In this document: in pieces, positions 3,969 to 63,104 of the stretch
Layout: each line of letters begins with the position of its first letter
Numbering within the stretch: the stretch's first letter is position 1
NCBI GenBank assembly: GCA_028716665.1
Contig: JAQUPP010000002.1
Span: 75,717 to 139,716 of the forward strand
DNA length: 64,000 nucleotides
Reading direction: 5' to 3'
From: Patescibacteria group bacterium
GTDB lineage: Bacteria > Patescibacteriota > Patescibacteriia > UBA2591 > JAQUPP01
Translations under genes and position numbers: made by a program
Notes under the pieces: model-generated
Database searches by the model: none
Told to the model about the DNA's origin: nothing
Seen by the model: the letters and a program-made list of their open reading frames with translations, nothing else

Positions 3969-3990
3969 TTTTTAAGTAGAGAGCTATCAG

Positions 3991-4075
3991 CCCCTCACAT
4001 GAAAATTATTGTCTTTTCCGAGTGAGTGCGGGCGACACAGGAGATTAATAATTTTGATAATTTTCATGTGAGGGG
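3991..4075. repeat. Perfect 19-bp inverted repeat (cccctcacatgaaaattat ... ataattttcatgtgagggg) with a 47-nt loop, right after the scpB stop codon
   Basis: Read directly from the sequence. Confidence 0.8.
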
Positions 4076-4089: not shown

Positions 4090-4197
4090 CTCCGACGCCT
4101 TAAAGGGTCGGAGTCCCGACCTCCAGAGCGTCGGGGCGGATAGAAAAATTTATTTTTTTTAGTAATTAGTCATTAGTAATTTGTAATTTGTTTTTCC

Positions 4198-4269
4198 GCC
4201 CTCATAGTTTAATGGATAGAACGTAGCCCTCCGAAGGCTGAAATGCAGGTTCGATTCCTGCTGAGGGCA
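4198..4269 (+). tRNA. tRNA-Arg (anticodon CCG)
   Basis: Manual cloverleaf. Acceptor gccctca/tgagggc, D-arm tagtttaatggatagaac, anticodon loop ctCCGaa, T-loop ttcgatt. Confidence 0.75.
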
Positions 4270-4328: not shown

Positions 4329-5486
4329 ATGGCTAGAAAATCATCAATTAAAAATCTTAAGAAAGCGAGAAAAGCAAAGAATGACGAGTTTTATACTCAG
4401 TATATTGATATTCAAAAAGAGATTGAAAAATACCTGGATTATAATTCTGATACTTTTCGCAGCAAGGCAGTGTATTGCAATTGCGACGATCCGTTTGAGA
4501 GCAATTTCTTTCGCTATTTCGTGCTCAATTTCAACAAGCTTGGATTAAAACAGCTCATTACTACGAGCTACAAGCCTTCGCCCGTAGCGAACACGCAGCT
4601 AGGGTTGTTTGGGGATGATAAAACTCTTACAAAATCAAAAAGCCTGCCTGCCGGTAGGCAGGGCCGTGCTAAAATAACCGCCAACAAATTTATTATCAAC
4701 GAAGTGCGTGATATAGACAACGATGGTGAGTTTAACTTGGAAGATATTGCCAAACAGTTAAAGGTAAACAAAAATAATGAATGGGCGCCATTAGAAGGTG
4801 ATGGTGATTTTCGTAGCGATGAATGTGTAGAACTACTCAAGCAATCCGATATAGTAGTAACCAACCCACCCTTTAGTTTGTTTCGTGAATATTTTAGACA
4901 ACTTTTTGATTATAAAAAAAAGTTTTTGATTATCGGCAATATCAACTGCCTAACCTATAGAGAAATATTTCAAAAAATTAAAGAAAATATAGCATGGCTT
5001 GGTAATGGAATGGGGAGATGGATTTCTGGATTTATTGTTCCCGAATCCTACGACTTATACGGATCAGAGGCTCGGATAGATAAAAATGGAAACAGAATTG
5101 TAGCCACCAATAATTGTTTATGGCTAACTAATCTTGATCACGGTCGCCGCCACCAGCCATTACCGCTTATGACAATGGAAGAAAATTTGAAATACAGCAA
5201 ACATAAAGAAATTAAAGGTAAAAAAGCGTATGATAAATATGACAATTATGATGCGATTGAAATACCTTTTACCGATGCAATTCCAAGCGATTATAAAGGC
5301 GTAATGGGTGTGCCAGTTACATTTCTTGATAAATATAATCCCAAACAGTTTGAAATATTGGGAAATTCTAATGTGCGAGGAGAGCGAGAACATTTAATGA
5401 ACAAGGTAAAATCCGCAACGGATTGTACTTATATAAACGGAAAACCGCAATATGCTCGTATATTAATAAAACATAAGAAAAAATAA
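4329..5486 (+). CDS. EcoRI-family N6-adenine DNA methyltransferase (possible orphan or system-associated)
   Basis: The N-terminus MARKSSIKNLKKARKAKNDEFYTQYIDIQKEI...VYCNCDDPFESNFF closely matches the M.EcoRI N-terminus as I recall it. Catalytic NPPF (VVTNPPFSLF) is present. GC content and codon usage differ from flanking genes. Confidence 0.7.
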   Translation: MARKSSIKNLKKARKAKNDEFYTQYIDIQKEIEKYLDYNSDTFRSKAVYCNCDDPFESNFFRYFVLNFNKLGLKQLITTSYKPSPVANTQLGLFGDDKTLTKSKSLPAGRQGRAKITANKFIINEVRDIDNDGEFNLEDIAKQLKVNKNNEWAPLEGDGDFRSDECVELLKQSDIVVTNPPFSLFREYFRQLFDYKKKFLIIGNINCLTYREIFQKIKENIAWLGNGMGRWISGFIVPESYDLYGSEARIDKNGNRIVATNNCLWLTNLDHGRRHQPLPLMTMEENLKYSKHKEIKGKKAYDKYDNYDAIEIPFTDAIPSDYKGVMGVPVTFLDKYNPKQFEILGNSNVRGEREHLMNKVKSATDCTYINGKPQYARILIKHKKK

Positions 5487-5510
5487 TTTTTTAAATTTTA
5501 ATTTTTTAAA

Positions 5511-7058
5511 ATGGAAATAGCACTACCAAATCAAATTTATGGTGATAAAAAAATCATAATAGATGACTCAAAATCTGTTTTTGTTTTTATTGGTGCTAAT
5601 GGCTCAGGCAAATCAAAACTAATGGATCAAATAAAGGCACATATGACACAACAAACGAAAATAATTTCTGATGGGATTAATTCAGTTCCTCCTATTAATA
5701 CCATTGATGAGGAGAGCGTAAAACAAAATTCTTGGGGGAATAAAGTAGTTGATAATGTCACAAGCCTTATAAATGGTAACGATACTGTTAGACAAGTTAT
5801 TTTCTTTTGGTTTAAAAAACTATTTGGCAAAGAAATTAGTAAAGAGGGCAATCAATATTGGATAACAGAAGACGGTAATAAATTTCAATTGAATGCAGAC
5901 GGCGACGGATATAAAACATTTTTTAATTTAGCTTATTATTTAACAACTCCAGATTATAAATATTTAATTTTTGATGAACCGGAAAGATTCTTGCATCCTA
6001 ATTTGCAGATAAGCTTGTTTAATATGATAAAAAAGCTATCAAGGGATTATGGGAAACAGGTTTTTATTACAACACATTCATCACATTTTATCGACTTTCT
6101 TTCTGACGGAATTGAAGTTTTTCTTCTTAGTAAGCCAAAAAAAGAAACCTTTAACTTAACAGAAAAAATTAATAGCTCATCCGATAAAAATTTTACGACA
6201 TGGATTCACTACAATAAACATATTTTATTTAGCAAAACCATTGTTTTATTGGAGGGGTACACTGATCAAATATTTTTAAATCAACTTTTACAAAAGTTGA
6301 ATCATTCTGTATTTGGAAGAAATATTTCCTTTATTTCCGTGGCAGTAGAAAAAGAAAACGGTGGTAAGTCAAAAATTGTAAAATTTCAAAAAATTATTTC
6401 AGAATTTTTTACTTGTTGGAGTTTATTTGACTTGGATCTTTTGCTAAATAGTGGTGGGGAATTAAGTAAGTATTTAGATGCAACGGATGTTACAGAATTT
6501 GGTACATGGAGAAATAGTAAAACTCTTGATGACTTATCAAATCTACTAGCTGAACAAGAAATGACAAAAGTTTTTAAAACATTAAAAGCCAAAAAAGTAT
6601 TAATTTTGGAAAAAGGTGCCATTGAGAAATATTGTAAAAAAATTGGTGTTGCTGATAAATTAAAAGATAAATTATATGAAGAAGTTGACTATCTAAATTC
6701 ACTCACACTTGATTTAGTTGAATCTGAATATGGAGACTTAATTAATATAATATCTAGTCTAGATGGATTTAATTTTGATGAAAATGATGATTTATCGAAT
6801 TTAGTTTTTAGATTGATAATGGACTTTGAAAAAGAGGCGAAAACTCTAAATCCATATCAATATTTAAAAATTCCAAAATCTATACAGGATCATTTATTTA
6901 GTGACCCAGACAAAGGAGCAAGTTATGAGTTTAGATTTAGATTTTTGAGCGATAAATTATTTTCCATTAAAAAAACTTTTTCAACGGACGAAAAAAAAGA
7001 TTATATAGATTCAGTGTTTTCAAGCTCCAGTATCAGCCAAAGATATTTACAAAGGTAA
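5511..7058 (+). CDS. OLD-family nuclease: ABC-type ATPase domain fused to a Toprim domain
   Basis: Walker A GANGSGKS. Walker B/D-loop YLIFDEPERFLHP. H-loop ITTHS. Toprim glutamate IVLLEGYTDQ and DxD (FDLDLL). Very AT-rich with different codon usage. Confidence 0.7.
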   Translation: MEIALPNQIYGDKKIIIDDSKSVFVFIGANGSGKSKLMDQIKAHMTQQTKIISDGINSVPPINTIDEESVKQNSWGNKVVDNVTSLINGNDTVRQVIFFWFKKLFGKEISKEGNQYWITEDGNKFQLNADGDGYKTFFNLAYYLTTPDYKYLIFDEPERFLHPNLQISLFNMIKKLSRDYGKQVFITTHSSHFIDFLSDGIEVFLLSKPKKETFNLTEKINSSSDKNFTTWIHYNKHILFSKTIVLLEGYTDQIFLNQLLQKLNHSVFGRNISFISVAVEKENGGKSKIVKFQKIISEFFTCWSLFDLDLLLNSGGELSKYLDATDVTEFGTWRNSKTLDDLSNLLAEQEMTKVFKTLKAKKVLILEKGAIEKYCKKIGVADKLKDKLYEEVDYLNSLTLDLVESEYGDLINIISSLDGFNFDENDDLSNLVFRLIMDFEKEAKTLNPYQYLKIPKSIQDHLFSDPDKGASYEFRFRFLSDKLFSIKKTFSTDEKKDYIDSVFSSSSISQRYLQR

Positions 7059-7100
7059 AAATTATTAATAGACAAGAAAAAAATAACCAAATTAAATAAT

Positions 7101-8267
7101 ATGAAAACTATTTTAAAAACCAACATCACCGTTAAAGATATTTGCGATGGGTTTGTTTATAACGAACTTGAAGGCAAGGGCTTATTTGGTTTGTCCGGCA
7201 AGTTGACTATTCAACCGGAGTATCAACGCAATTATATTTATGCGTCTGACGGCGGGAAAAGAGAGATGGCTGTTATTGAATCAATACTCAAAGGTTACCC
7301 AATAGGTTTAATTTATTTTAATAAAGTTAGCGAAGATAAACTGGAAGTTTTAGATGGACAACAGCGCATTACCAGTGTCGGACGTTTTATCACCGACAAA
7401 TTTGCAATCAAAGATGAAAATGGGATGCAATATTTCGGCGGTATGGCAAAAGACAAGAAAGCTAAGATTTTAGAAACAAAATTGCTTATTTATGAATGCG
7501 AAGGCACAGAAAGCCAAATAAAAGAGTGGTTTAAAACAATCAATATTGCCGGAGTACCGCTCGTCCCTCAAGAATTGTTAAACGCGATTTATTCCGGACT
7601 ATTCGTTACATTAGGCAAAGAGGAGTTCAGTAACAGCCAAAATGCTAATATTCAAAAATGGAGCGCGTATATAAAAGGCAGCGCAAACCGACAGGCATTT
7701 TTTGAGAGGGCATTGGACTGGGCGAGTAAGGGAAATATTGATGACTACATGAGCCTCCATCGCTATGATAAAAATATTATTGAGTTAAAAAAATATTTCA
7801 ATAGTGTGATTGACTGGGTCTCTAGCGTCTTCACCGATGTGGAAAGCGAGATGTGCGGACTTGAGTGGGGACGACTGTACGAGCAGTATCATAAGAAAGC
7901 TTATGACCCCAAAAAAGTGTCATCCGAAGTGCGTAAGCTCTATGGCGATCCATACCTCAAAAACCGTAAAGGTATTTTTGAATTTATTTTAGGAGGTTCT
8001 ACTGATACGAAATTGCTTGAGGTTAGAATTTTTGATGAAGCAACCAAAAAAGCAGTTTATGCGACACAAACTGCAAAAGCAGAGAAAAAAGGCGAATCAA
8101 ATTGCCCGCATTGCGCTATTGGACATGATGCCAACAAGAGTAAAATTTGGAGTTTAAACGATATGGATGCTGACCATGTAGCGGCTTGGAGTAAGGGTGG
8201 TAAAAGCGATATTAAGAATTGCCAAATGCTGTGCAAAACGCATAATCGAGCAAAAGGTAATCGGTAA
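7101..8267 (+). CDS. DUF262 (GmrSD/SspE N-terminal, ParB-like) domain fused to a C-terminal HNH endonuclease
   Basis: [11 protein letters not shown] and DGQQRITS motifs. C-terminal CPHC...[10 protein letters not shown]...[16 protein letters not shown] finger. Confidence 0.75.
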
Positions 8268-8279
8268 GAAAAATTAATT

Positions 8280-9608
8280 ATGTTAAAATCAATTCTTAAA
8301 AAAATTATTCCCAAAAAATTATTTATTTTTTATTACCAGTCTTTAGCTTTATTGGCTGCTTTTTTTTATAATCAGCCGAGCCAAAAAATGATTGTTATCG
8401 GCATAACCGGCACGGCCGGTAAGTCAACTGTGGTAAATTTGGTCGGTCGGATTTTGGAAAAAGCCGGCTATCAATGCGGTTGGGCGACAACTTTCAATTT
8501 TAAAGTGGGCCCAAAAGAGTGGATTAATAAGACAAAAATGACCATGCTTGGCCGTTTTGCTCTTCAAAAAATGCTTAAACAGATGCTCGCAGCAGGCTCT
8601 AAATACGCGATAATTGAGACTTCTTCAGAAGGAATCATCCAAAGTCGCCATTTGGGAATTAATTACGATGTGGCGGTTTTTACCAATCTCAGCCCGGAAC
8701 ATATTGAATCTCACGGCGGTTTTGATAAATATCGCCAGGCCAAACAAAAACTTTTTTATAATTTAACAAAAAAACATAAACGAATTAATGGTCGGACGAT
8801 TAAGAAGGTGATTGTTGCTAATTTGGATGACGAAAATGCGGAACATTTTTTAAAATTTCCGGCTGATGAAAAATATGGCTATACAATTAAGAATCTAGAA
8901 TCTAGAATTAAGAATTTAGAAGGATTAAAAGTTGTTAAAGCCGAAAATATCTGTTTGGATTCAAATAATTCTAAATTCCAAATTCTAAATTCCAAATTCA
9001 TAATTAATTTAGCCGGAGAGTTTAATGTTTATAATTCTTTGGCGGCGATTTGTGTTGCCTTATCTCAAGGAGTGAGTTTGGAAATTTGCCAAAAAGCGCT
9101 GGAAGAAATTGAACTAATGCCCGGCCGAATGGAAAAAATAATTACTCATCCGTTTGAAGTAATCGTTGATTATGCGCATACTCCGGAGAGCTTAGAGCAA
9201 GTTTATAAAACTCTTCAAAATTCCAAATTCCAAATTCCAAATTCCAAATTGATATGTGTGCTTGGCGCGGCCGGCGGGGGACGGGACAAATGGAAAAGAC
9301 CGAAATTGGGAGAACTGGCGGAAAAATATTGTGATCATATTATCATTACCAACGAAGATCCGTATAATGAAAATCCGGAAAAAATTATTGATGAAATAAT
9401 TTCCGGAATTAAAAATAAAAATCAAGATAAAATTTTAAAAATTATTGATCGGAGAGAGGCGATTAGAAAAGCTTTAAGTTTGGCCAAAGAAAAAGACGTG
9501 GTGGTGATAACAGGCAAGGGGTGCGAGCAGTGCATTATGGGTCAGAATAATACCAGGTTTTTTTGGGATGATAGAGAGGTGGCAAAAGAAGAATTTAATA
9601 AAATATAG
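8280..9608 (+). CDS. Mur ligase family protein (MurE-like UDP-MurNAc-tripeptide synthetase)
   Basis: P-loop IGITGTAGKST. Central and C-terminal Mur ligase layout (ETSSEGI..., VDYAHTP, ITNEDP). Contains in-frame heptamer repeat arrays. Confidence 0.6.
   Translation: MLKSILKKIIPKKLFIFYYQSLALLAAFFYNQPSQKMIVIGITGTAGKSTVVNLVGRILEKAGYQCGWATTFNFKVGPKEWINKTKMTMLGRFALQKMLKQMLAAGSKYAIIETSSEGIIQSRHLGINYDVAVFTNLSPEHIESHGGFDKYRQAKQKLFYNLTKKHKRINGRTIKKVIVANLDDENAEHFLKFPADEKYGYTIKNLESRIKNLEGLKVVKAENICLDSNNSKFQILNSKFIINLAGEFNVYNSLAAICVALSQGVSLEICQKALEEIELMPGRMEKIITHPFEVIVDYAHTPESLEQVYKTLQNSKFQIPNSKLICVLGAAGGGRDKWKRPKLGELAEKYCDHIIITNEDPYNENPEKIIDEIISGIKNKNQDKILKIIDRREAIRKALSLAKEKDVVVITGKGCEQCIMGQNNTRFFWDDREVAKEEFNKI
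8888..9003. repeat. Two inverted arrays of 4-6 tandem TTCYNRA heptamers inside the Mur ligase CDS (8888-8923 and 8967-9003)
   Basis: Read directly. The reverse complement of the first array equals the unit of the second. Confidence 0.8.
9219..9250 (+). repeat. Third tandem array (TTCCAAA x4) inside the Mur ligase CDS
   Basis: Read directly. Confidence 0.8.
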
Positions 9609-19151: not shown

Positions 19152-20380
19152 AAATCATAAGCTCTGACCAGCATTTCTATTTTTTGCCGTTTTTGATTAG
19201 GGGATAATTTTTTTAAACTCGGAATGAATGTTTCCAGGTCTTTTTCCAAATTAAACAGAAATTGAGCAGTCGGAGTAATAATATTGGCCTTAACGATTTT
19301 GCCCTGATTGTCTATTTGATAAGCGTGAATCAGTAGTCCTCGCGGCGCCTCACAGGCTCCGACTCCATATCCGGCTTTAATTTTATAAGATACGCGATAG
19401 ATTTTATTTTTTGATTTCAAATGCTTTTGCAGAAGTTTTTGAGTTTCTTCAATGAGATGGATTATTTCTATCATTTGGGCAGTTACATTATGGAAGGTAT
19501 TATAACAAGGCAACTCAAGTCCTAATTTTTTCATTGCTTGGCGGGCATTTTTATTGAGTTTATTGCCGGCGATATTCAATCTGGCTAATGGCCCGACCAA
19601 ATAAGGCTGCTGATTGCGTTTCACCATGTTTATTATTTCATTCGCTCGTTGAAATTCAATTAATCCTGAGCTGTATTTCTGGGCCGGAATTGATAATTTT
19701 TCCGAAGAAGAAATATTGCCTTCATAGATTGCGTATTCTTTGTTATTTTTAAGTCCGACAAATTCAGTTTTTCTGGAAAATTTATTGATTTTTATTTTTC
19801 CAAACCAGTCAGATAAATCAATGGCGCTGGCTAAAATTTCCGGTTGTTTTTCCAAAAGTTTTTTTAATTTTTCCTGATTCGGAGCTTTTAAAAATCCTCC
19901 GATATTGGCTGACATCGGATGAACCGAACGGCCGCCGATTGTTTCAATCAATTCATTGCCGAATTCGCGAATTTTAATGATATTTTGAAAGGCCGCGGAA
20001 TGTTTTGACATCAAATCCAAGCTGTTTTCCAAGCCAAGATAATCAGAAGAGGCCATTAAAATATGAAGAGCGTGACTTTGAATAATTTGTCCATTAAGCA
20101 TTATTTTTCTTAAATTCACGATTGGCTCGGGAATTTTTATTTTTAAAGCCGCTTCAAGCGCTTTGGAGGCGGTGATACAATGAACAGCCGGGCAAAGTCC
20201 GCAAATTCTGGCCGTAATCAGCGACGCTTCTTCAATTGGCCGGCCAATAAGAATGCCTTCAATTAATCTCGCTCCTTCTTTAACCTCCATTCTGGCTTTA
20301 AGTATTTTACCGTTTAAAATATTCGCTTCCATGCCCGCGTGGCCCTCAATTTTATTTATGTGTTTAATGGTTAAGTTCAT
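19127..20380 (-). CDS. hydA: [NiFe]-hydrogenase large (alpha) subunit, group 3b sulfhydrogenase type
   Basis: N-terminal RICGLCPAVH and C-terminal DLCISCAVH nickel-binding motifs. The likely start is MNLTIKHINKIEGH (20380), not 20446. Confidence 0.8.
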   Translation of the reverse strand: MNLTIKHINKIEGHAGMEANILNGKILKARMEVKEGARLIEGILIGRPIEEASLITARICGLCPAVHCITASKALEAALKIKIPEPIVNLRKIMLNGQIIQSHALHILMASSDYLGLENSLDLMSKHSAAFQNIIKIREFGNELIETIGGRSVHPMSANIGGFLKAPNQEKLKKLLEKQPEILASAIDLSDWFGKIKINKFSRKTEFVGLKNNKEYAIYEGNISSSEKLSIPAQKYSSGLIEFQRANEIINMVKRNQQPYLVGPLARLNIAGNKLNKNARQAMKKLGLELPCYNTFHNVTAQMIEIIHLIEETQKLLQKHLKSKNKIYRVSYKIKAGYGVGACEAPRGLLIHAYQIDNQGKIVKANIITPTAQFLFNLEKDLETFIPSLKKLSPNQKRQKIEMLVRAYDLCISCAVH

Positions 20381-20424
20381 AAGCTTACTAAGTTGATAAG
20401 TATATAAGTTAATAAATTGATAAA

Positions 20425-20778
20425 TTATTTTTGAACTTTTATCCAAGAATTTAACATTTTGCTTACTTCTTCGGTTAAAATAATAATATCTTGATATTTT
20501 GTTTCATCGATATAAGTTAAATCTTTTGATAATAATATTTGATATCTCGTTTCTTCTAATGAACCATTGGCAATCATGTAAAAATGAATTCGATCTTTTA
20601 ATGTTGTTCTTCTAAAACCCTCGACAATATTGGAAGCAATAGATACTGCCGCTCTTCGCAGCTGGCTAGATAAACCATATTTTTCTTCTTCAGGGAATTG
20701 TTTGGTAATTTTATAAATTTTTAAAACCAATTCGTGAGCTTTCTGCCAAACCTTAATGTCTTGAAAACTTTTAATCAT
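20425..20778 (-). CDS. four-helix-bundle protein (TIGR02436, '23S rRNA intervening-sequence protein', Avd-like)
   Basis: KVWQKAHELVL...LSSQLRRAAVSIASNIVEG...RIHFYMIANGSLEETRYQILL is the classic family signature. Confidence 0.7.
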   Translation of the reverse strand: MIKSFQDIKVWQKAHELVLKIYKITKQFPEEEKYGLSSQLRRAAVSIASNIVEGFRRTTLKDRIHFYMIANGSLEETRYQILLSKDLTYIDETKYQDIIILTEEVSKMLNSWIKVQK

Positions 20779-20825
20779 ACTTATCTGCTTAGTTAGCTTA
20801 ATTACTTATTAACTTATCTGCTTAG

Positions 20826-21611
20826 TTAGCTTATCAGCTTCTTAAATTCGTCTTTAACGCCGAATTTTTCCAAAAGATTGTTTAAATCTTCATCGCTTAA
20901 TCCTTGTCTTTTAAAAATTTTTATTAAATTTTTTGCCGCCGGTTTGGATAAAAATCCGCGGCAAGCTGAACAAATCTCTCCGCTTTTTAAGCAAATTGCT
21001 TGGCATCCGCCCAAAGTAATCGGCCCGAGGCAGGGGAGTCCTTTTTGGAGCAGGCAATCATATTCTCTGATTTGGCATTCATAACAAACCGGTCGTTGAG
21101 GAATACATGGTATTTTACCGACTAATAATGAAGCGATTATTTTGGCAATTTCTTTTTTATTCGGCGGGCAACCGGGTATTTCCAAATCTATTTTTACATA
21201 CTCTTTTAAGGGTTTAATTAATGGGTTCTCAATATTTTTTGTTGATTTATAAATCTGTTTAATTAGTTTTTCTCTGTCGCGATAGTTTTTTATTTCCGGA
21301 ATTCCTCCAATGCAAGCGCAAGCGCCTATGGCGATTAAAAATTTGCTTTGTTTTCTAAATTGTTCTAATGTTTTGAGATTTTCTTTTGTTACCACCGAAC
21401 CCTCAACAAAAGCAATGTCAAATTTTGTCGGTGATTTACCGCTTTTTACCAAAGGAAATTCAGTTATTTGCAGTCGATCAACGACGCCCTTGAGAAGTTG
21501 TCCCAGGTTGATAATTTCCATTAAACAGCCGTTACAGGCGGTTAAAGAAATAATGGCAACAGTTGGTTTTTCCCGCCCTAGGCGGGTCGGCTTTGAGTTG
21601 ATATTTATCAT
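20826..21611 (-). CDS. hydD: [NiFe]-hydrogenase small (delta) subunit
   Basis: N-terminal LTACNGC motif and C-terminal Cys cluster. Sits between the hyp genes and hydA. Confidence 0.7.
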   Translation of the reverse strand: MININSKPTRLGREKPTVAIISLTACNGCLMEIINLGQLLKGVVDRLQITEFPLVKSGKSPTKFDIAFVEGSVVTKENLKTLEQFRKQSKFLIAIGACACIGGIPEIKNYRDREKLIKQIYKSTKNIENPLIKPLKEYVKIDLEIPGCPPNKKEIAKIIASLLVGKIPCIPQRPVCYECQIREYDCLLQKGLPCLGPITLGGCQAICLKSGEICSACRGFLSKPAAKNLIKIFKRQGLSDEDLNNLLEKFGVKDEFKKLIS

Positions 21612-34229: not shown

Positions 34230-34368
34230 TATTAAGTTGATTATTAATTTATTTAATTCATTTTTGAATGAAGTGATATTAAGTAAACAATTTTGGCCAG
34301 ATTACGAGCCGGGCAGGTAGCCAGGCAGAAAAAACTTGGCTTTAACCCGACTTTTTTAATAAAAAGAT

Positions 34369-38519: not shown

Positions 38520-38554
38520 CTAAGAAGCTAAAAAGCTAATTCCTAAAAAGCTAA
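38520..38554 (+). repeat. 35-bp exact repeat (ctaagaagctaaaaagctaattcctaaaaagctaa), copy 1 (S3-L16 spacer)
   Basis: Identical to 40172-40206. Confidence 0.85.
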
Positions 38555-38556
38555 TT

Positions 38557-40101: not shown

Positions 40102-40171
40102 ATCAGCTTCTTAGCTGGTAGCTTCTTAGCTTTTTAGGGCTAGAAACTACAAAACCAACTTTAAAAATTTT

Positions 40172-40206
40172 CTAAGAAGCTAAAAAGCTAATTCCTAAAA
40201 AGCTAA
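40172..40206 (+). repeat. 35-bp exact repeat, copy 2 (L24-L5 spacer). Part of a larger imperfect inverted repeat (agcttcttagct ... agctaagaagct) at 40105-40204.
   Basis: Read directly. Confidence 0.85.
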
Positions 40207-40209
40207 AAT

Positions 40210-40755
40210 ATGAATTTAAAAACAAAATATTTAAAAGAAGCGGTTCCGGCCATGAAAGAAAAATTTGGCTATAAGAATGATATGGCGGTTCCGAAAATAA
40301 AAAAAGTGACGATTAATATCGGTTTAAATCGTGCAATAATGGAAAAAGATCAGAAATTTGTTGATTTGACTACTGATACGATATTGAGAATTACCGGACA
40401 ACAACCGGTTAAAACTTTATCTCAAAAATCAATTGCCGGTTTTAAAATCAGACAAGGACTTGTTGTCGGCTTGAAAGTTACCTTAAGAGGATCTAAAATG
40501 TATGATTTTTTGGAAAAATTAATTAAAATATCTTTTCCAAGAACAAGAGATTTCAGGGGTATTTCAATGAATAACGTTGATAAACAAGGTAACTTATCAA
40601 TCGGACTGAAGGAACAAATTGTTTTTCCTGAAATATCTCCGGAAAGCATCACTAAAGTTCACGGTCTTGAAATTATTATCACCACTTCAGCTAAAGAAAA
40701 AGAAAAAGGAATTGAACTTTTTAAACTAATAGGATTTCCATTCAAAAAATCTTAA
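40210..40755 (+). CDS. rplE: 50S ribosomal protein L5
   Basis: Conserved L5 sequence. Confidence 0.9.
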   Translation: MNLKTKYLKEAVPAMKEKFGYKNDMAVPKIKKVTINIGLNRAIMEKDQKFVDLTTDTILRITGQQPVKTLSQKSIAGFKIRQGLVVGLKVTLRGSKMYDFLEKLIKISFPRTRDFRGISMNNVDKQGNLSIGLKEQIVFPEISPESITKVHGLEIIITTSAKEKEKGIELFKLIGFPFKKS

Positions 40756-40757
40756 TT

Positions 40758-40943
40758 ATGGCAATTTTATCACAAATTTTAAAATCTCAAAGAAAACCTA
40801 AATTTGGAACGCGAATTGTCCGACGCTGTTGGCGTTGCGGCAGAAAAAGGGGATACATGAGAGATTTTGATTTATGCAGAATTTGTTTCCGAGAATTAGC
40901 CACCAAGGGTGCTATTCCCGGCATCAGAAAGAGCAGCTGGTAA
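40758..40943 (+). CDS. rpsZ: 30S ribosomal protein S14, type Z (zinc-binding)
   Basis: 61 aa with a CxxC...CxxC motif. Confidence 0.9.
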   Translation: MAILSQILKSQRKPKFGTRIVRRCWRCGRKRGYMRDFDLCRICFRELATKGAIPGIRKSSW

Positions 40944-41063
40944 GTTCATAAGTTAGTAAGTAGATAAGTTAAGAATTTAATGAAACATAACTTATATAAA
41001 TAAACTTAAAAATTTAAAAAAACTTATAAACTTATAATCTTAGTAAGCTTATAAACTTAATTT

Positions 41064-43454: not shown

Positions 43455-43654
43455 GTAGAAACAAAACCCTTACCCCCTCCTTTATCTCAACGATAAACTT
43501 TCGATAATCGTTAAGATAAAAGGCGAAGCCGCTTCGCTTACGGCGTATCGTAAAAGGATAGACCCCCGATGGAGTAAAGAAGGGGGTACGCAAAATTGTA
43601 GTTAAAAATTTTGCTCCGCCAGCTGGTGGATTAAATAAATTAAATAATTTTGGT

Positions 43655-51849: not shown

Positions 51850-52290
51850 TTAAAATTTTAGACAAATTTTAAGAATCCCCACGCAAATTAACCCCATCTC
51901 TGCTAAAATTAAAGGAACTAATAACCATTTCTTTTTCTCAATCTCATCAGTAAGATTAAAATCAATAATGGAGGTCATATAGACGATGACAAGAATGAAA
52001 CCAATGGTGATGGCGACTGCTGCAATAATGGAAGCAGTGGTTTTGAAAAAAGTGAAGACGGAAAAGAAAGTGAAATCAATAGCAGTGGCAGCGAATGCAG
52101 TGAAGAATGAAACGAAGAAGAATTTGATATTAGTAACAAAAGCAAAATAGACAGAAGCAATAAGGGTAAAAACAAGAACAAGGGCGAGGGCGATGATCAC
52201 GTCTTTGGTTAAACTAAATGTTATTGCAAAAAACCCGATTGCAAGAACAATCGCAGACAATACAGATAGACCCAGAGTTAATTTTTTCAT
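51850..52290 (-). CDS. hypothetical integral membrane protein
   Basis: Four TM helices. Shares its promoter/5'UTR with the 53437 gene. Confidence 0.45.
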   Translation of the reverse strand: MKKLTLGLSVLSAIVLAIGFFAITFSLTKDVIIALALVLVFTLIASVYFAFVTNIKFFFVSFFTAFAATAIDFTFFSVFTFFKTTASIIAAVAITIGFILVIVYMTSIIDFNLTDEIEKKKWLLVPLILAEMGLICVGILKICLKF

Positions 52291-52444
52291 TTTTCCTCCT
52301 TTATAAAAATAACTATTTTAAATTATAGATAAAATTAGAAATTTGTCAACTCTTTCATAAAGAAATTTTTATCTTTCTTTAAAATTATGATTTAAGTGGA
52401 TAATTGTCCTTGACAAAAATTAAAGAACTGATATTATATTTATT

Positions 52445-53436: not shown

Positions 53437-53718
53437 TCAAGTGATAATTTTAAAAAGTTCTAATTTTACACAAGGATCAGTTAAGGATGGCCTATCATTA
53501 ACATTGGCAATAGTGTTGGGTGTAGTTTCTTTTTTTTCGAGCAAGGGACAATATTCTGGTCGACATGCAACTCTTTTTGTGTGATGTTTTGGTGCGTCAG
53601 GGTGCATACACAGAACTCCAAAATATGGCTCGCAATCTTTATAAAATGGACATTTTGTGTCGGGCCACGAGAAATCATCAGAATACCTAAATTCAGGTAT
53701 GTAGTCTTCTTTTTTCAT
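53437..53718 (-). CDS. hypothetical small cysteine-rich protein
   Basis: Strong SD. Promoter/5'UTR duplicated at 52291. Confidence 0.4.
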   Translation of the reverse strand: MKKEDYIPEFRYSDDFSWPDTKCPFYKDCEPYFGVLCMHPDAPKHHTKRVACRPEYCPLLEKKETTPNTIANVNDRPSLTDPCVKLELFKIIT

Positions 53719-53822
53719 TTTTCCTCCTTTATAAAAATAACTATTTAAAATTATAAATAAAATTAGAAATTTGTCAATACTTTATCTTTATCAAAAAAAC
53801 GAGTTAAAATAACTCGTTTTTT

Positions 53823-61349: not shown

Positions 61350-61420
61350 AAAACGATACTAAAAAATAAGCTGATAAGCTGGTAAGCTGGTAAGTAAATA
61401 AGTAGTGAATAAAAAATAAT

Positions 61421-62002
61421 ATGAATGACAAAAGGGCAAAATTAATAATAAGAATTGTTGCCGGAGTGATTTTCGTTTTGTCACTTATTCTATCAATCAT
61501 AAGTCTTTTATCTTTAGTGACTAAAATTTCTGGAATTAATAGAACAATATTCAGTGCGTATATCCAGATTTTTATGACCAGTAGATTTATGAATCATTTT
61601 TTCATTGATGTTATTGGTAGTCAGTTTATTTTTATACCTTTATATCTCTTATTTTTAAGTTTGATAATAGGTATATTTGGATTAATTGCTTCAAAAGGGC
61701 TATGGCAATATAGAAAATGGTGGAAGGTTGCTTTAATTATTCTCTCATTATTTTTAATAATTCTGAGTGGAAAAGGGATTCTATGGGTTTTATTGGGATT
61801 GGGTATTGGAATTGGTGACTCTGGGAGATATATTTCTCTTAAAGATATTTTTTATGTGTTACAAAAATTCGGAGTATTAAAATTTTTTGAAGCAGTCATA
61901 TTCTTTGTCTTTTTTATTTGTCTATTTTCATTTAATAAAACAATAAGAAATGTTTTTGAGAAACAAAAAACTGGAGTAGCAGAATCAAAAAATAACGAAT
62001 AA
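61421..62002 (+). CDS. hypothetical integral membrane protein
   Basis: Multiple TM helices. Confidence 0.4.
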   Translation: MNDKRAKLIIRIVAGVIFVLSLILSIISLLSLVTKISGINRTIFSAYIQIFMTSRFMNHFFIDVIGSQFIFIPLYLLFLSLIIGIFGLIASKGLWQYRKWWKVALIILSLFLIILSGKGILWVLLGLGIGIGDSGRYISLKDIFYVLQKFGVLKFFEAVIFFVFFICLFSFNKTIRNVFEKQKTGVAESKNNE

Positions 62003-62027
62003 GAAAATAAAATTTTAAATTTAATTT

Positions 62028-63104
62028 ATGCCAATAAATAAAGACTCCCTGCCTACCGGCAGGCAGGAAAAATTTTATCCGGGCGAAAGAAAAAATATTT
62101 TGGTTACAGGTGGAGCCGGTTTTATCGGTTCTCACCTTTGCGACCAATTGATAGCAGACAATAATGTTATTTGCGTGGATGATTTCATTGGCGGCGGAAA
62201 TTTGAACAATATCAGTCATCTCTTACAGAACCCGAATTTCCGTTTTATCAAGCATGATATTAATTTGCCGATAAATTTTGAAGAATTTCCGGAATTAGCG
62301 AATTTTAAAATTAAAATTCACGGCATTCAGGAAATTTTTCATTTAGCTTCTCCAACCTCGGCTAAAAACTTTAATCAGTTGCGATTGAAAAGTTTGCACA
62401 CCAATGCCATCGGCACGATTAATATTTTGGAAATGGCTAAATTGTATAAAGCAAAAATTCTTTTTACTTCTTCAGCCGTGGTTTACGGTTCTCGTCGCAA
62501 AGATAATTCTTCTTTCAAAGAAAGTGATTTTGGTTCTGTTAATTTTATCAGTCCGAGAGCTTGCTATGATGAAGGGAAACGTTTTGCCGAAACAGCCATG
62601 ATGACTTATCGGGAAATGTACGGATTGGATACTAAGATTGTCAGAATTTTCAGAACTTACGGTCCGCGTGAAACTCTTTTTGACGGACAAATGGTTCCTG
62701 ATTTTGTTCTGCAAGCGCTTACGCAGCAGCCTTTGATTATTTACGGAGATGGAAATTTTTCAACTTCGCTTTGTTACGTAGGCGATGTTGTTGACGGCAT
62801 TATTTCAATGATGGACTCAAATGAAATCGGACCGATAAATTTGGGCGGATCAGAAGAATATAAATTGGTGGATCTGGCTAATAAAATTATAGAAATTACT
62901 CATTCTCAATCCAAAGTTGAGTTTAAATCACCGCTCCTTTTTATGACTCCGCTCGGTCTGCCCGATATCAGTTTGGCGAAAGAAAAATTAAATTGGCTCC
63001 CGGTTGTCGGATTAAATGACGGTCTGGAAAAATTAGTTGATTATGTTAAGGCTAACAGAATATTACTGGAACCTTTAATAAGTCAGTATGGAGAAAAATT
63101 TTAA
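62028..63104 (+). CDS. NAD-dependent epimerase/dehydratase (UDP-glucuronate decarboxylase / dTDP-glucose dehydratase-like SDR)
   Basis: VTGGAGFIGSH Rossmann motif and YDEGKR catalytic motif. The N-terminal 20 codons contain the 21-bp repeat. Confidence 0.7.
   Translation: MPINKDSLPTGRQEKFYPGERKNILVTGGAGFIGSHLCDQLIADNNVICVDDFIGGGNLNNISHLLQNPNFRFIKHDINLPINFEEFPELANFKIKIHGIQEIFHLASPTSAKNFNQLRLKSLHTNAIGTINILEMAKLYKAKILFTSSAVVYGSRRKDNSSFKESDFGSVNFISPRACYDEGKRFAETAMMTYREMYGLDTKIVRIFRTYGPRETLFDGQMVPDFVLQALTQQPLIIYGDGNFSTSLCYVGDVVDGIISMMDSNEIGPINLGGSEEYKLVDLANKIIEITHSQSKVEFKSPLLFMTPLGLPDISLAKEKLNWLPVVGLNDGLEKLVDYVKANRILLEPLISQYGEKF

Follow-up and report, generated by a model that had tools for sequence, protein, structure and literature searches.

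A 20-nucleotide palindrome inserted in frame in two genes of a Patescibacteria contig recurs across bacterial phyla and beside tRNA-linked GIY-YIG nuclease genes

The stretch of DNA considered here, hereafter the window, comprises 64,000 nucleotides (nt) of contig JAQUPP010000002.1 (positions 75,717 to 139,716 of the forward strand) from the Patescibacteria group bacterium assembly GCA_028716665.1. It contains an adenine-specific DNA methyltransferase gene and an NAD-dependent epimerase/dehydratase gene (Table 1) which share a short GC-rich sequence. As reported in an earlier note on this DNA, the 21-mer CCCTGCCTACCGGCAGGCAGG is present at 62047-62067 on the plus strand and its exact reverse complement at 4643-4663, within the two open reading frames (ORFs), where they encode SLPTGRQ and SLPAGRQG, respectively. 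The note had also judged a chance match essentially impossible, and none of 100 dinucleotide-preserving shuffles of the window yields one, even with up to three mismatches allowed. The two copies are very probably orphan insertions of a dispersed repeat family, whose core also occurs in a cassette with a small GIY-YIG nuclease gene and a tRNA gene.

The shared unit consists of a 20-nt near-palindrome followed by one G; identity ends there and the wider flanks are unrelated. The core reads CCTGCCTGCCGGTAGGCAGG at 4643-4662 and CCTGCCTACCGGCAGGCAGG at 62048-62067. It is arranged around CCGG, as had been noticed, and is one transition away from a perfect palindrome, the halves of which are CCTGCCTGCC and GGCAGGCAGG. 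In both copies the transition lies beside the central CCGG (G8 to A, which is C13 to T on the other strand). The inverted orientation of the copies, to which the earlier note drew attention, is correct as a description but carries little meaning: because the core is a single transition from perfect symmetry, orientation tells only which strand has the transition. The predicted fold of the single-stranded 20-mer is a hairpin of 8 bp capped by a CCGG loop, with an energy of about -8 kcal/mol. The G+C content of the window is 35%.

Comparison of the methyltransferase with its homologues reveals an insertion of seven codons. The nearest relatives are 378 aa in length compared with 385 aa in the window, and SLPAGRQ is absent, as a 7-residue gap, from 15 of 15 aligned homologues with 79-96% identity. 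The empty site is preserved in the DNA of three relatives (L121-L123), in which CAAAA is followed directly by GGACGC; in the window AGCCTGCCTGCCGGTAGGCAG stands between CAAAA and GGCCGT, a net gain of 21 nt. The last G of the core forms the first base of the target's conserved glycine codon. The gain is made up of AG and 19 nt of the core, placed before the target G, and the junction fits neither a 20-mer nor a 22-mer (G-core-G) insertion without an extra change. The insertion site is the most indel-prone stretch of the homologue alignment. A structure model, poor overall with a mean pLDDT of 56.5, places the insertion in a coil segment (residues 95-115) with pLDDT below 50 and gives weak support to its lying in a variable loop. 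Three contigs are on record with the methyltransferase in its inserted form; two of them were read, and one of these comes from a separate NCBI assembly. The insertion has been seen only in the window's organism.

The insertion in the dehydratase lies in the N-terminal tail of the protein, ahead of the Rossmann GxxGxxG motif, the Pfam Epimerase match beginning at residue 24. Homologues of up to 76% identity start with M..K(E)-QKFYPGE..NILVTGGAGF; they are 7-8 residues shorter and do not have SLPTGRQ. Since they share the KFYPGE tail, this part of the dehydratase is coding and SLPTGRQ is extra. In a syntenic sister genome (L124, about 91% DNA identity) the same site holds the perfect palindrome, encoding SLPAGRQ. 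The dehydratase insertion is older than the split between the two genomes, because the orthologous site is filled in L124, and the difference between them at the transition position shows that this position does mutate. The methyltransferase insertion appears to be younger, because it is absent from relatives that are up to 96% identical. Alignment of orthologues, a check proposed in the earlier note, thus identifies both elements as insertions, the opposite of a peptide conserved without nucleotide identity. A search for other small mobile inserts between the window and L124 revealed only ordinary AT-rich indels. A separate difference between the two is a 193-aa multi-pass membrane ORF (61421-62002; region 61385-62008) between the PNPase and dehydratase genes, which is missing in L124, where about 50 nt take its place.

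Table 1. Host genes, insertions and tRNA-Arg features of the window
Feature	Position	Strand	Basis or remark
EcoRI-family adenine-specific DNA methyltransferase (host gene 1), 385 aa	4329-5486	+	PF13651, E = 5.5e-128
In-frame insertion AGCCTGCCTGCCGGTAGGCAG, codons 105-111 (SLPAGRQ)	4641-4661	+	Homologue alignment; DNA of three relatives
NAD-dependent epimerase/dehydratase, UDP-glucuronate decarboxylase-like (host gene 2), 358 aa	62028-63104	+	Pfam; homology
In-frame insertion TCCCTGCCTACCGGCAGGCAG, codons 7-13 (SLPTGRQ)	62046-62066	+	Homologue comparison; sister genome L124
Intact tRNA-Arg (CCG)	4198-4269	+	374 nt upstream of the methyltransferase copy
Interrupted 5' tRNA-Arg copy: GCCCTCATAGTTTAA, 48 nt (4090-4137), GGATAGAA	4075-4145	+	Sequence compared with the intact tRNA-Arg, upstream of which it sits

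The core is widely dispersed. When one genome per species was searched for CCTGCCTRCCGGYAGGCAGG, at least 120 loci were found, in many phyla and with no common flanks; these and the related counts are lower bounds. The listed loci come from many Patescibacteria lineages, Bacteroidota (cultured isolates among them), Ignavibacteria, Omnitrophota, Planctomycetota, Nitrospirota, Thermodesulfobacteriota, Bdellovibrionales, delta- and gammaproteobacterial metagenome-assembled genomes (MAGs), Chloroflexi and others, with no cyanobacterium among the 120. Most hold a single copy. By our own arithmetic, chance would supply about 2 matches in 596 Gb if its composition were uniform, and a smaller number in AT-rich loci, where most copies are found. 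In IMG/VR the core was found in 48 viral contig stretches with around 60 copies, while three control palindromes of the same composition and with the same central ten bases gave 0, 2 and 0 matches. When the stem CCTGCCT/AGGCAGG was allowed any loop of 6 nt, the viral hairpins carried GCCGGC in 40 cases, GCCGGT/ACCGGC in 14 and any other loop in at most 3, proportions which are biased in that they were taken among the matches listed. Both window copies are members of this family, being the single-transition (GT/AC) variant of CCTGCCTRCCGGYAGGCAGG with unrelated flanks. The earlier note's other refuting condition was a lack of genome-wide enrichment of the 21-mer; across public collections, the scale at which this was counted, its core is enriched relative to control palindromes. 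The note's suggestion of a miniature mobile element tolerated in frame is supported by the 7-codon insertions together with a dispersal across phyla and viral contigs far above that of the controls.

Among the 128 listed genome copies and the two of the window, 81 are perfect, 48 (37%) carry a single transition and 1 a double change. Independent decay at that rate would, by our calculation, give about 8 double changes against the 1 observed. Once the single-transition copies are put in a common orientation, 32 of 48 have G at -1, and 29 of 48 have it at +1. From this pattern the variant looks like a propagating subfamily, although recurrent mutation is also possible. The fact that both window copies share the same variant might instead suggest a private event, in which ectopic gene conversion or recombination copied 21 nt between the two genes, or else an artefact of assembly. 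This is scarcely credible, given that 37% of sampled copies carry the variant and that the same sequence is found in cultured isolates and in MAGs from many laboratories. The methyltransferase insertion is moreover present on three contigs, including the separate NCBI assembly, and the dehydratase insertion in L124 also. As a complete explanation such an event, or an artefact, is refuted by the public distribution and the independent assemblies; intragenomic copying may have been the last step.

A second alternative is that the hairpin has been selected in place rather than copied, as a terminator, RNA stabiliser, operator, DNA uptake sequence or (CCTG)n/(CAGG)n slippage motif. The 20-mer folds as DNA at about -8 kcal/mol, most copies are intergenic and lie outside long ORFs, some phage contigs have the 20-mer between genes, and in L111 it lies inside a terminator-like hairpin. 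Convergence would not be expected, however, to give exact identity over 20 nt in many phyla while control palindromes are essentially absent. Both window copies are within ORFs, and what follows them is GCCGTGC and AAAAATTTTA rather than the T-run of an intrinsic terminator. Known DNA uptake sequences occur about once per kb, and two copies in 64 kb are far too sparse for that role. Since insertion relative to homologues is directly observed, selection in place is very improbable. No function of the hairpin is demonstrated for the two genes that carry it.

For eleven copies the surrounding gene is verified, through Pfam, a PDB match or evident homology. Besides the two of the window, the genes concerned encode FtsK (L018), a sortilin-like protein (L019), TrpRS (L094), RfbB (L032, with a nested double copy), ScpB (L074), a histidine kinase (L098, with a second repeat), a PMT-family glycosyltransferase (L105) and two membrane proteins (L060 and L112). 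In TrpRS the insert corresponds to an exact 7-residue gap relative to PDB entry 2a4m. All 11 of the 11 in-gene copies are read in the frame x-L-P-(A/T)-G-R-Q-x, for which we calculate a chance of (1/3)^11. No frame of the palindrome has a stop codon, and the other two frames encode cysteine. The frame bias is consistent with selection filtering a process that is itself blind to frame. At L098 (around 1270-1330) the insert is a composite of the 20-mer and a second hairpin, in frame in the ATPase domain, and encodes SLSFGEGQGLPAGRQGEV. More generally, the 20-mer often adjoins a recurrent hairpin, CCCTCTCC...GGAGAGGG, followed by GGGGTGAGG, as at L098, L151/L152 (three copies), L017 and L076.

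The palindrome is preferentially located in loops. Flanks that pair at -12 kcal/mol or better surround 18% of copies, as against 4% of mismatched flank pairs, and such pairing means that the copy occupies the apex of a hairpin already present. Several copies are nested in another copy, after its position 9 or 11, which is to say in its own loop. Repeats of period 7 flank 15.8% of copies compared with 2.6% of random positions of the same loci (p = 2e-14), and period-8 repeats are also enriched. A tRNA gene lies within 400 nt of 17 of 184 copies, mostly with the copy upstream, and at seven loci (L003, L006, L021, L044, L052, L093 and L168) a copy lies inside a duplicated 5' fragment of the neighbouring tRNA. 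Few copies show a target-site duplication or a palindrome that extends into the flanks; direct repeats of at least 4 nt flank 3 of 127 copies. The 20-mer is also seen in apparently full-length tRNA genes, in the D-loop of a tRNA-Arg (L264, 1739-1830), as well as in the variable region of tRNA-Met (L128, around 8580-8670; L157, 2239-2330). At L021 (4013-4225) a tRNA-like 5' half with the 20-mer and a matching 3' half (ending in …GGTTCGATTCCCACCCCTGACACCA) enclose a complete tRNA-Met, and the tRNA looks split or invaded.

The duplicated tRNA fragments belong to a stereotyped cassette, comprising a partial 5' tRNA copy interrupted by the palindrome, an ORF of about 77 aa with a GIY-YIG domain only, and an intact tRNA gene. 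At L052, for example, a 79-aa GIY-YIG ORF stands between an interrupted tRNA-Lys fragment and the intact tRNA-Lys. In the sample selected by the 20-mer, 10 loci have a small GIY-YIG ORF and in 8 of these it lies within 161 nt of a copy; we estimate chance adjacency in such loci at a few percent each. The cassette ORFs, of 75-86 aa, match Pfam GIY-YIG (PF01541) with E = 1e-14 to 1e-15, above the curated cut-off, and match no other domain; NCBIfam gave no family-level match for them. When ORFs from the 120 listed loci were clustered all against all, no widespread shared neighbour emerged, the only groups being that of the GIY-YIG proteins and one of three IS200-like members.

The association holds in the reciprocal direction. 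Eight of the GIY-YIG proteins were aligned and metagenome loci were fetched by protein homology alone; 80 were kept, 42-57% identical to the query save for one identical hit, and 76 of them had at least 100 nt of upstream sequence. Within this nuclease subfamily a core with no more than 2 mismatches, and mostly exact, lies up to 260 nt upstream of the GIY-YIG start codon in 54 of the 76, its end mostly 9-60 nt before that codon. A tRNA gene on the same strand follows within 150 nt downstream in 56 of 80, the commonest being Leu, Arg, Phe, Lys and Asn. Among 45 distinct cassettes there are 35 in which a 5' copy of the downstream tRNA is broken by exactly the 20 nt of the core, with no base gained or lost: the left side matches the tRNA from position 1 to a position p and the right side resumes at p+1. 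The value of p is 20-24 in 24 of the 35, corresponding to the 3' edge of the D-loop, and an A precedes the core in 34 of 35. The interrupted copy reaches to about position 37 and has a median identity of 98% to the intact gene. Most loci scored as lacking a core have a derivative in the same place, be it a palindrome nested in the core centre, a 19-nt version or another GC-rich palindrome, and some show a mirror layout, with a 3' tRNA fragment interrupted in the T-loop. The locus L121, which provided one of the empty methyltransferase sites, has a cassette with a different palindrome. Palindrome, GIY-YIG gene and tRNA duplicate are thus tightly linked. In cultured phages only distant GIY-YIG genes were matched, and the one inspected has no adjoining tRNA.

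A miniature inverted-repeat transposable element was considered as a classification and rejected: such elements have terminal inverted repeats and a target-site duplication, and no duplication is present at the 35 precise tRNA insertions.

In six cassettes (L264, L280, L283, L288, L310 and L296) the ORF has one core before it and another after it, spaced about 300 nt. This raises the alternative that the orphan copies are footprints, left where a cassette with a palindrome at each end inserted in a gene and recombination then deleted the ORF, leaving one copy. By that route, genes such as those for TrpRS, FtsK and ScpB would have had to pass through a disrupted state with about 300 nt of extra sequence. 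The tRNA fragments of the cassette would also stay behind, yet the flanks of the window copies are coding sequence with no similarity to tRNA, in contrast to the interrupted tRNA copies of the cassettes. As a general explanation whole-cassette footprints are unlikely; for intergenic copies they are possible, while inside essential genes they are unlikely.

A further alternative places the 20-mer among the repetitive extragenic palindromic (REP) sequences and REPINs of Proteobacteria. These are short palindromes with many orphan copies and one nuclease-type gene flanked by the repeat, the REP-associated tyrosine transposase (RAYT), which is taken to be the mobiliser (PMC3116915). The 20-mer shares with them its non-coding nature, its many orphan copies and the presence of one repeat-flanked nuclease gene. 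It is likewise a short dispersed palindrome, mostly intergenic; its variant contains GTAG, and at L047 an IS200-like transposase ORF begins 14 nt past the end of a copy. Nevertheless, only 3 of the 120 listed loci encode a transposase of this IS200-like Y1 type, one of them adjacent and on one side only, so that no Y1 gene flanked by the repeat was found there, and the window has no such transposase. REPs are lineage-specific and avoid coding sequence, whereas the 20-mer is identical across phyla rather than species-specific and lies in frame in genes, 11 copies being in verified ones; inverted doublets are not usual for it. Its candidate enzyme is a GIY-YIG domain of about 77 aa rather than an HUH/Y1 transposase, with a tie to tRNA genes, and the reciprocal association with GIY-YIG genes is far stronger. 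Movement by a Y1 transposase is therefore weakly refuted and very improbable.

The window sites are probably orphan copies of the cassette palindrome, CCTGCCTGCCGGCAGGCAGG, or of its single-transition variant, from which we infer nuclease-driven movement. The palindrome would be copied to new places as a hairpin-forming unit with a preference for single-stranded loops, such as tRNA D-loops, the loops of other hairpins and its own loop. The copying would be performed or triggered by the cassette nuclease, from a gene located on a phage or in another part of the genome. That the GIY-YIG nuclease moves the palindrome is plausible from their genomic association, falling a little short of an even chance. 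The cassette would then be a selfish unit residing at tRNA genes and keeping an intact tRNA alongside, in which the palindrome would mark or disable the partial tRNA duplicate and may split the nuclease target or break a direct repeat through which the cassette would otherwise be deleted. Orphan copies would be seeded by this same activity, or by repair of off-target breaks with the palindrome as template. Survival within a gene would require a net length that is a multiple of three, the cysteine-free frame (LPAGRQ) and a flexible surface segment. With a cassette insert of 20 nt, survival in genes would be limited to the rare events that gain 21 nt. In its fullest form, this scheme describes a new mobile system, in which a minimal nuclease writes a 20-nt hairpin into single-stranded DNA loops, disabling the flanking tRNA fragment, blocking re-cutting or deletion of the cassette and, as a by-product, seeding orphans in genomes and phages of many phyla, among them 7-codon insertions in housekeeping genes; we offer this tentatively and consider it doubtful as a whole. 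The protein-binding site that the earlier note had offered as an alternative may also hold, as the core is a candidate recognition site because of its conservation beside the GIY-YIG nuclease gene.

Several observations weigh against movement by the nuclease. The nuclease and the palindrome are linked only by adjacency. The 64-kb window, from which, rather than from a whole genome, the organism is known here, contains no GIY-YIG gene, and so no palindrome some 10-60 nt upstream of such an ORF. Copies next to a GIY-YIG ORF make up only about 4% of the unbiased 20-mer sample. The upstream core found in 71% of the reciprocal loci describes this nuclease subfamily and not all small GIY-YIG genes, because the query proteins were picked from loci selected by the 20-mer. 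A 77-aa catalytic domain with no DNA-binding domain is unlikely to be the reader of 20 bp. Finally, the interruption is exactly 20 nt in cassettes, as against the 21 nt, or 7 residues, gained in the three genes where this can be measured. Simple cut-and-paste of a fixed 20-mer fails as an explanation, since genes gain 21 nt and the methyltransferase reads AG and 19 nt.

The window has an interrupted tRNA of its own. Upstream of the intact tRNA-Arg is a 5' copy broken after position 15 by 48 nt which form two GC-rich hairpins; a TTAGTAA heptamer array (4159-4188) follows, and then the intact gene. The layout resembles that of the GIY-YIG cassettes but has a different insert, no ORF and no 20-mer. 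By this resemblance it is probably a decayed relative of the cassette, its relation to the 20-mer being uncertain. A long inverted repeat at 3990-4075, CCCCTCACATGAAAATTAT ... ATAATTTTCATGTGAGGGG, with arms about 45 nt apart, abuts the interrupted copy. Rfam identified four tRNAs in the window and nothing else. Next to the tRNA-Arg is a row of defence-type genes (4329-8267), in which the methyltransferase is followed by an OLD-family ATPase/TOPRIM gene (5511-7058) and a GmrSD-like HNH protein gene (7101-8267). In L121-L123 the GmrSD gene directly follows the methyltransferase, which implies that the OLD gene is an extra insertion in the window.

Other repeats are also present. The CAGCTG-core palindromes that had been proposed as relatives of the 21-mer are not the same element. 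The one assigned to 2017-2030 is in fact CTGCCAGCTGGCAG at 2020-2033, which is intergenic and occurs only once in the sequence searched; that assigned to 43618-43631 is TCCGCCAGCTGGTGGA at 43615-43630, a member of a different recurrent palindrome, CCGCCAGCTGGCGG. A motif noted at 34296 (near 34313) is not palindromic and has no link to anything. The sequence TCCGCCAGCTGGTGGA is a one-transition variant of CCGCCAGCTGGCGG, which is found exactly in five unrelated loci (L014, L021, L022, L046 and L055), in most cases as T...A; at times it caps a longer hairpin or has the 20-mer nearby. Five Bacteroidota-type loci contain a third recurrent palindrome, CCGATAGCTATCGG. Tandem heptamer arrays (AGAATCT, AATTCCA, TTCCAAA) lie in frame in a Mur ligase gene (ORF 8280-9608) at 8890-8921, 8967-9005 and 9214-9250, encoding segments such as NSKFQILNSKF and QNSKFQIPNSK; the region of the third array aligns with a 4-residue gap relative to a MurE-like PDB chain. 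Intergenic arrays of 8-nt units (TAAGTTAA, GCTTATTA, CTAAAAAG, ATAAGCTG) are found at 20372-20427, 20780-20844, 40941-41060, 38520-38556, 40170-40230 and 61364-61402, some being distant inverted copies of one another. An AT-rich segment of 74 nt occurs twice with 95% identity, 1.4 kb apart (52282-52355 and 53710-53783); both copies end in TTTTTTCATTTTTCCTCC on the plus strand and look like duplicated upstream regions of minus-strand genes.

A number of parallels can be drawn with known systems besides REPs. The small dispersed repeats (SDRs) of Nostocaceae, in the part of their description available to us, are hairpin-forming sequences of 21-27 nt, recognised as insertions by comparison of orthologues and reported only from Nostocaceae. 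Elhai et al. in 2008 reportedly found them inside their own copies and in tandem heptamer arrays, and we know of no enzyme for SDRs and of no nuclease or tRNA cassette linked to them. Set against that partial description, the 20-mer is SDR-like in length (20-22 nt), hairpin formation, nesting, heptamer flanks and insertion relative to orthologues. By contrast, the absence of cyanobacteria from the 120 listed 20-mer loci argues against membership in SDR1-8, whose hosts are heterocystous cyanobacteria, the comparison being with that part of the SDR description and not with SDR sequences. The Rickettsia palindromic elements (RPEs), attributed to Ogata et al. in 2000, are said to be 100-150 bp in length, confined to Rickettsia and in frame in protein genes. 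The 20-mer is similarly palindromic DNA lying in frame in genes and adding a tolerated peptide, but it adds only 21 nt, well outside the RPE length, and spans many phyla.

On the side of the nuclease, SegB of phage T4 and I-TevI are GIY-YIG homing endonucleases of 220-245 aa with DNA-binding domains, which spread by cutting near their own insertion point, SegB residing in a tRNA gene cluster. The cassette ORF resembles SegB in its predicted GIY-YIG catalytic domain and in adjoining tRNA genes. It differs from both in having the catalytic domain only, and neither of these is known to have a dispersed palindrome or an interrupted tRNA duplicate. The GC clusters of yeast mitochondria are GC-rich palindromes of 30-50 bp in an AT-rich genome, sometimes in frame (var1). 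Like these, the 20-mer is GC-rich, short and inserted in frame in AT-rich DNA; the clusters, however, are organellar and species-specific, and no tRNA/GIY-YIG cassette is known for them. The literature searched, the coverage of which was incomplete, describes neither the 20-mer nor its peptides (PACRQAG, LPAGRQ, CLPAGR, LPTGRQ) nor a GIY-YIG/tRNA/palindrome cassette.

Very short dispersed palindromes, such as REPs, SDRs and organellar GC clusters, are common, lineage-specific and mostly spread by an unknown agent. The present case differs in that an exact 20-mer is common to Patescibacteria, Bacteroidota, Omnitrophota, Planctomycetota, Nitrospirota, several proteobacterial groups and viral contigs, and in that a specific partner can be proposed for it, the minimal GIY-YIG nuclease of the recurring tRNA cassette. 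The movement of 20-nt repeats thereby becomes testable with one small protein and one oligonucleotide. The peptides LPAGRQ, PACRQAG and CLPAGR recurring in metagenomic proteins would be explained as repeat-derived, and interrupted tRNA fragments beside tRNA genes would count as parts of cassettes and not as pseudogenes. Essential genes as different as those for TrpRS, FtsK and ScpB can absorb the same 7-residue insert.

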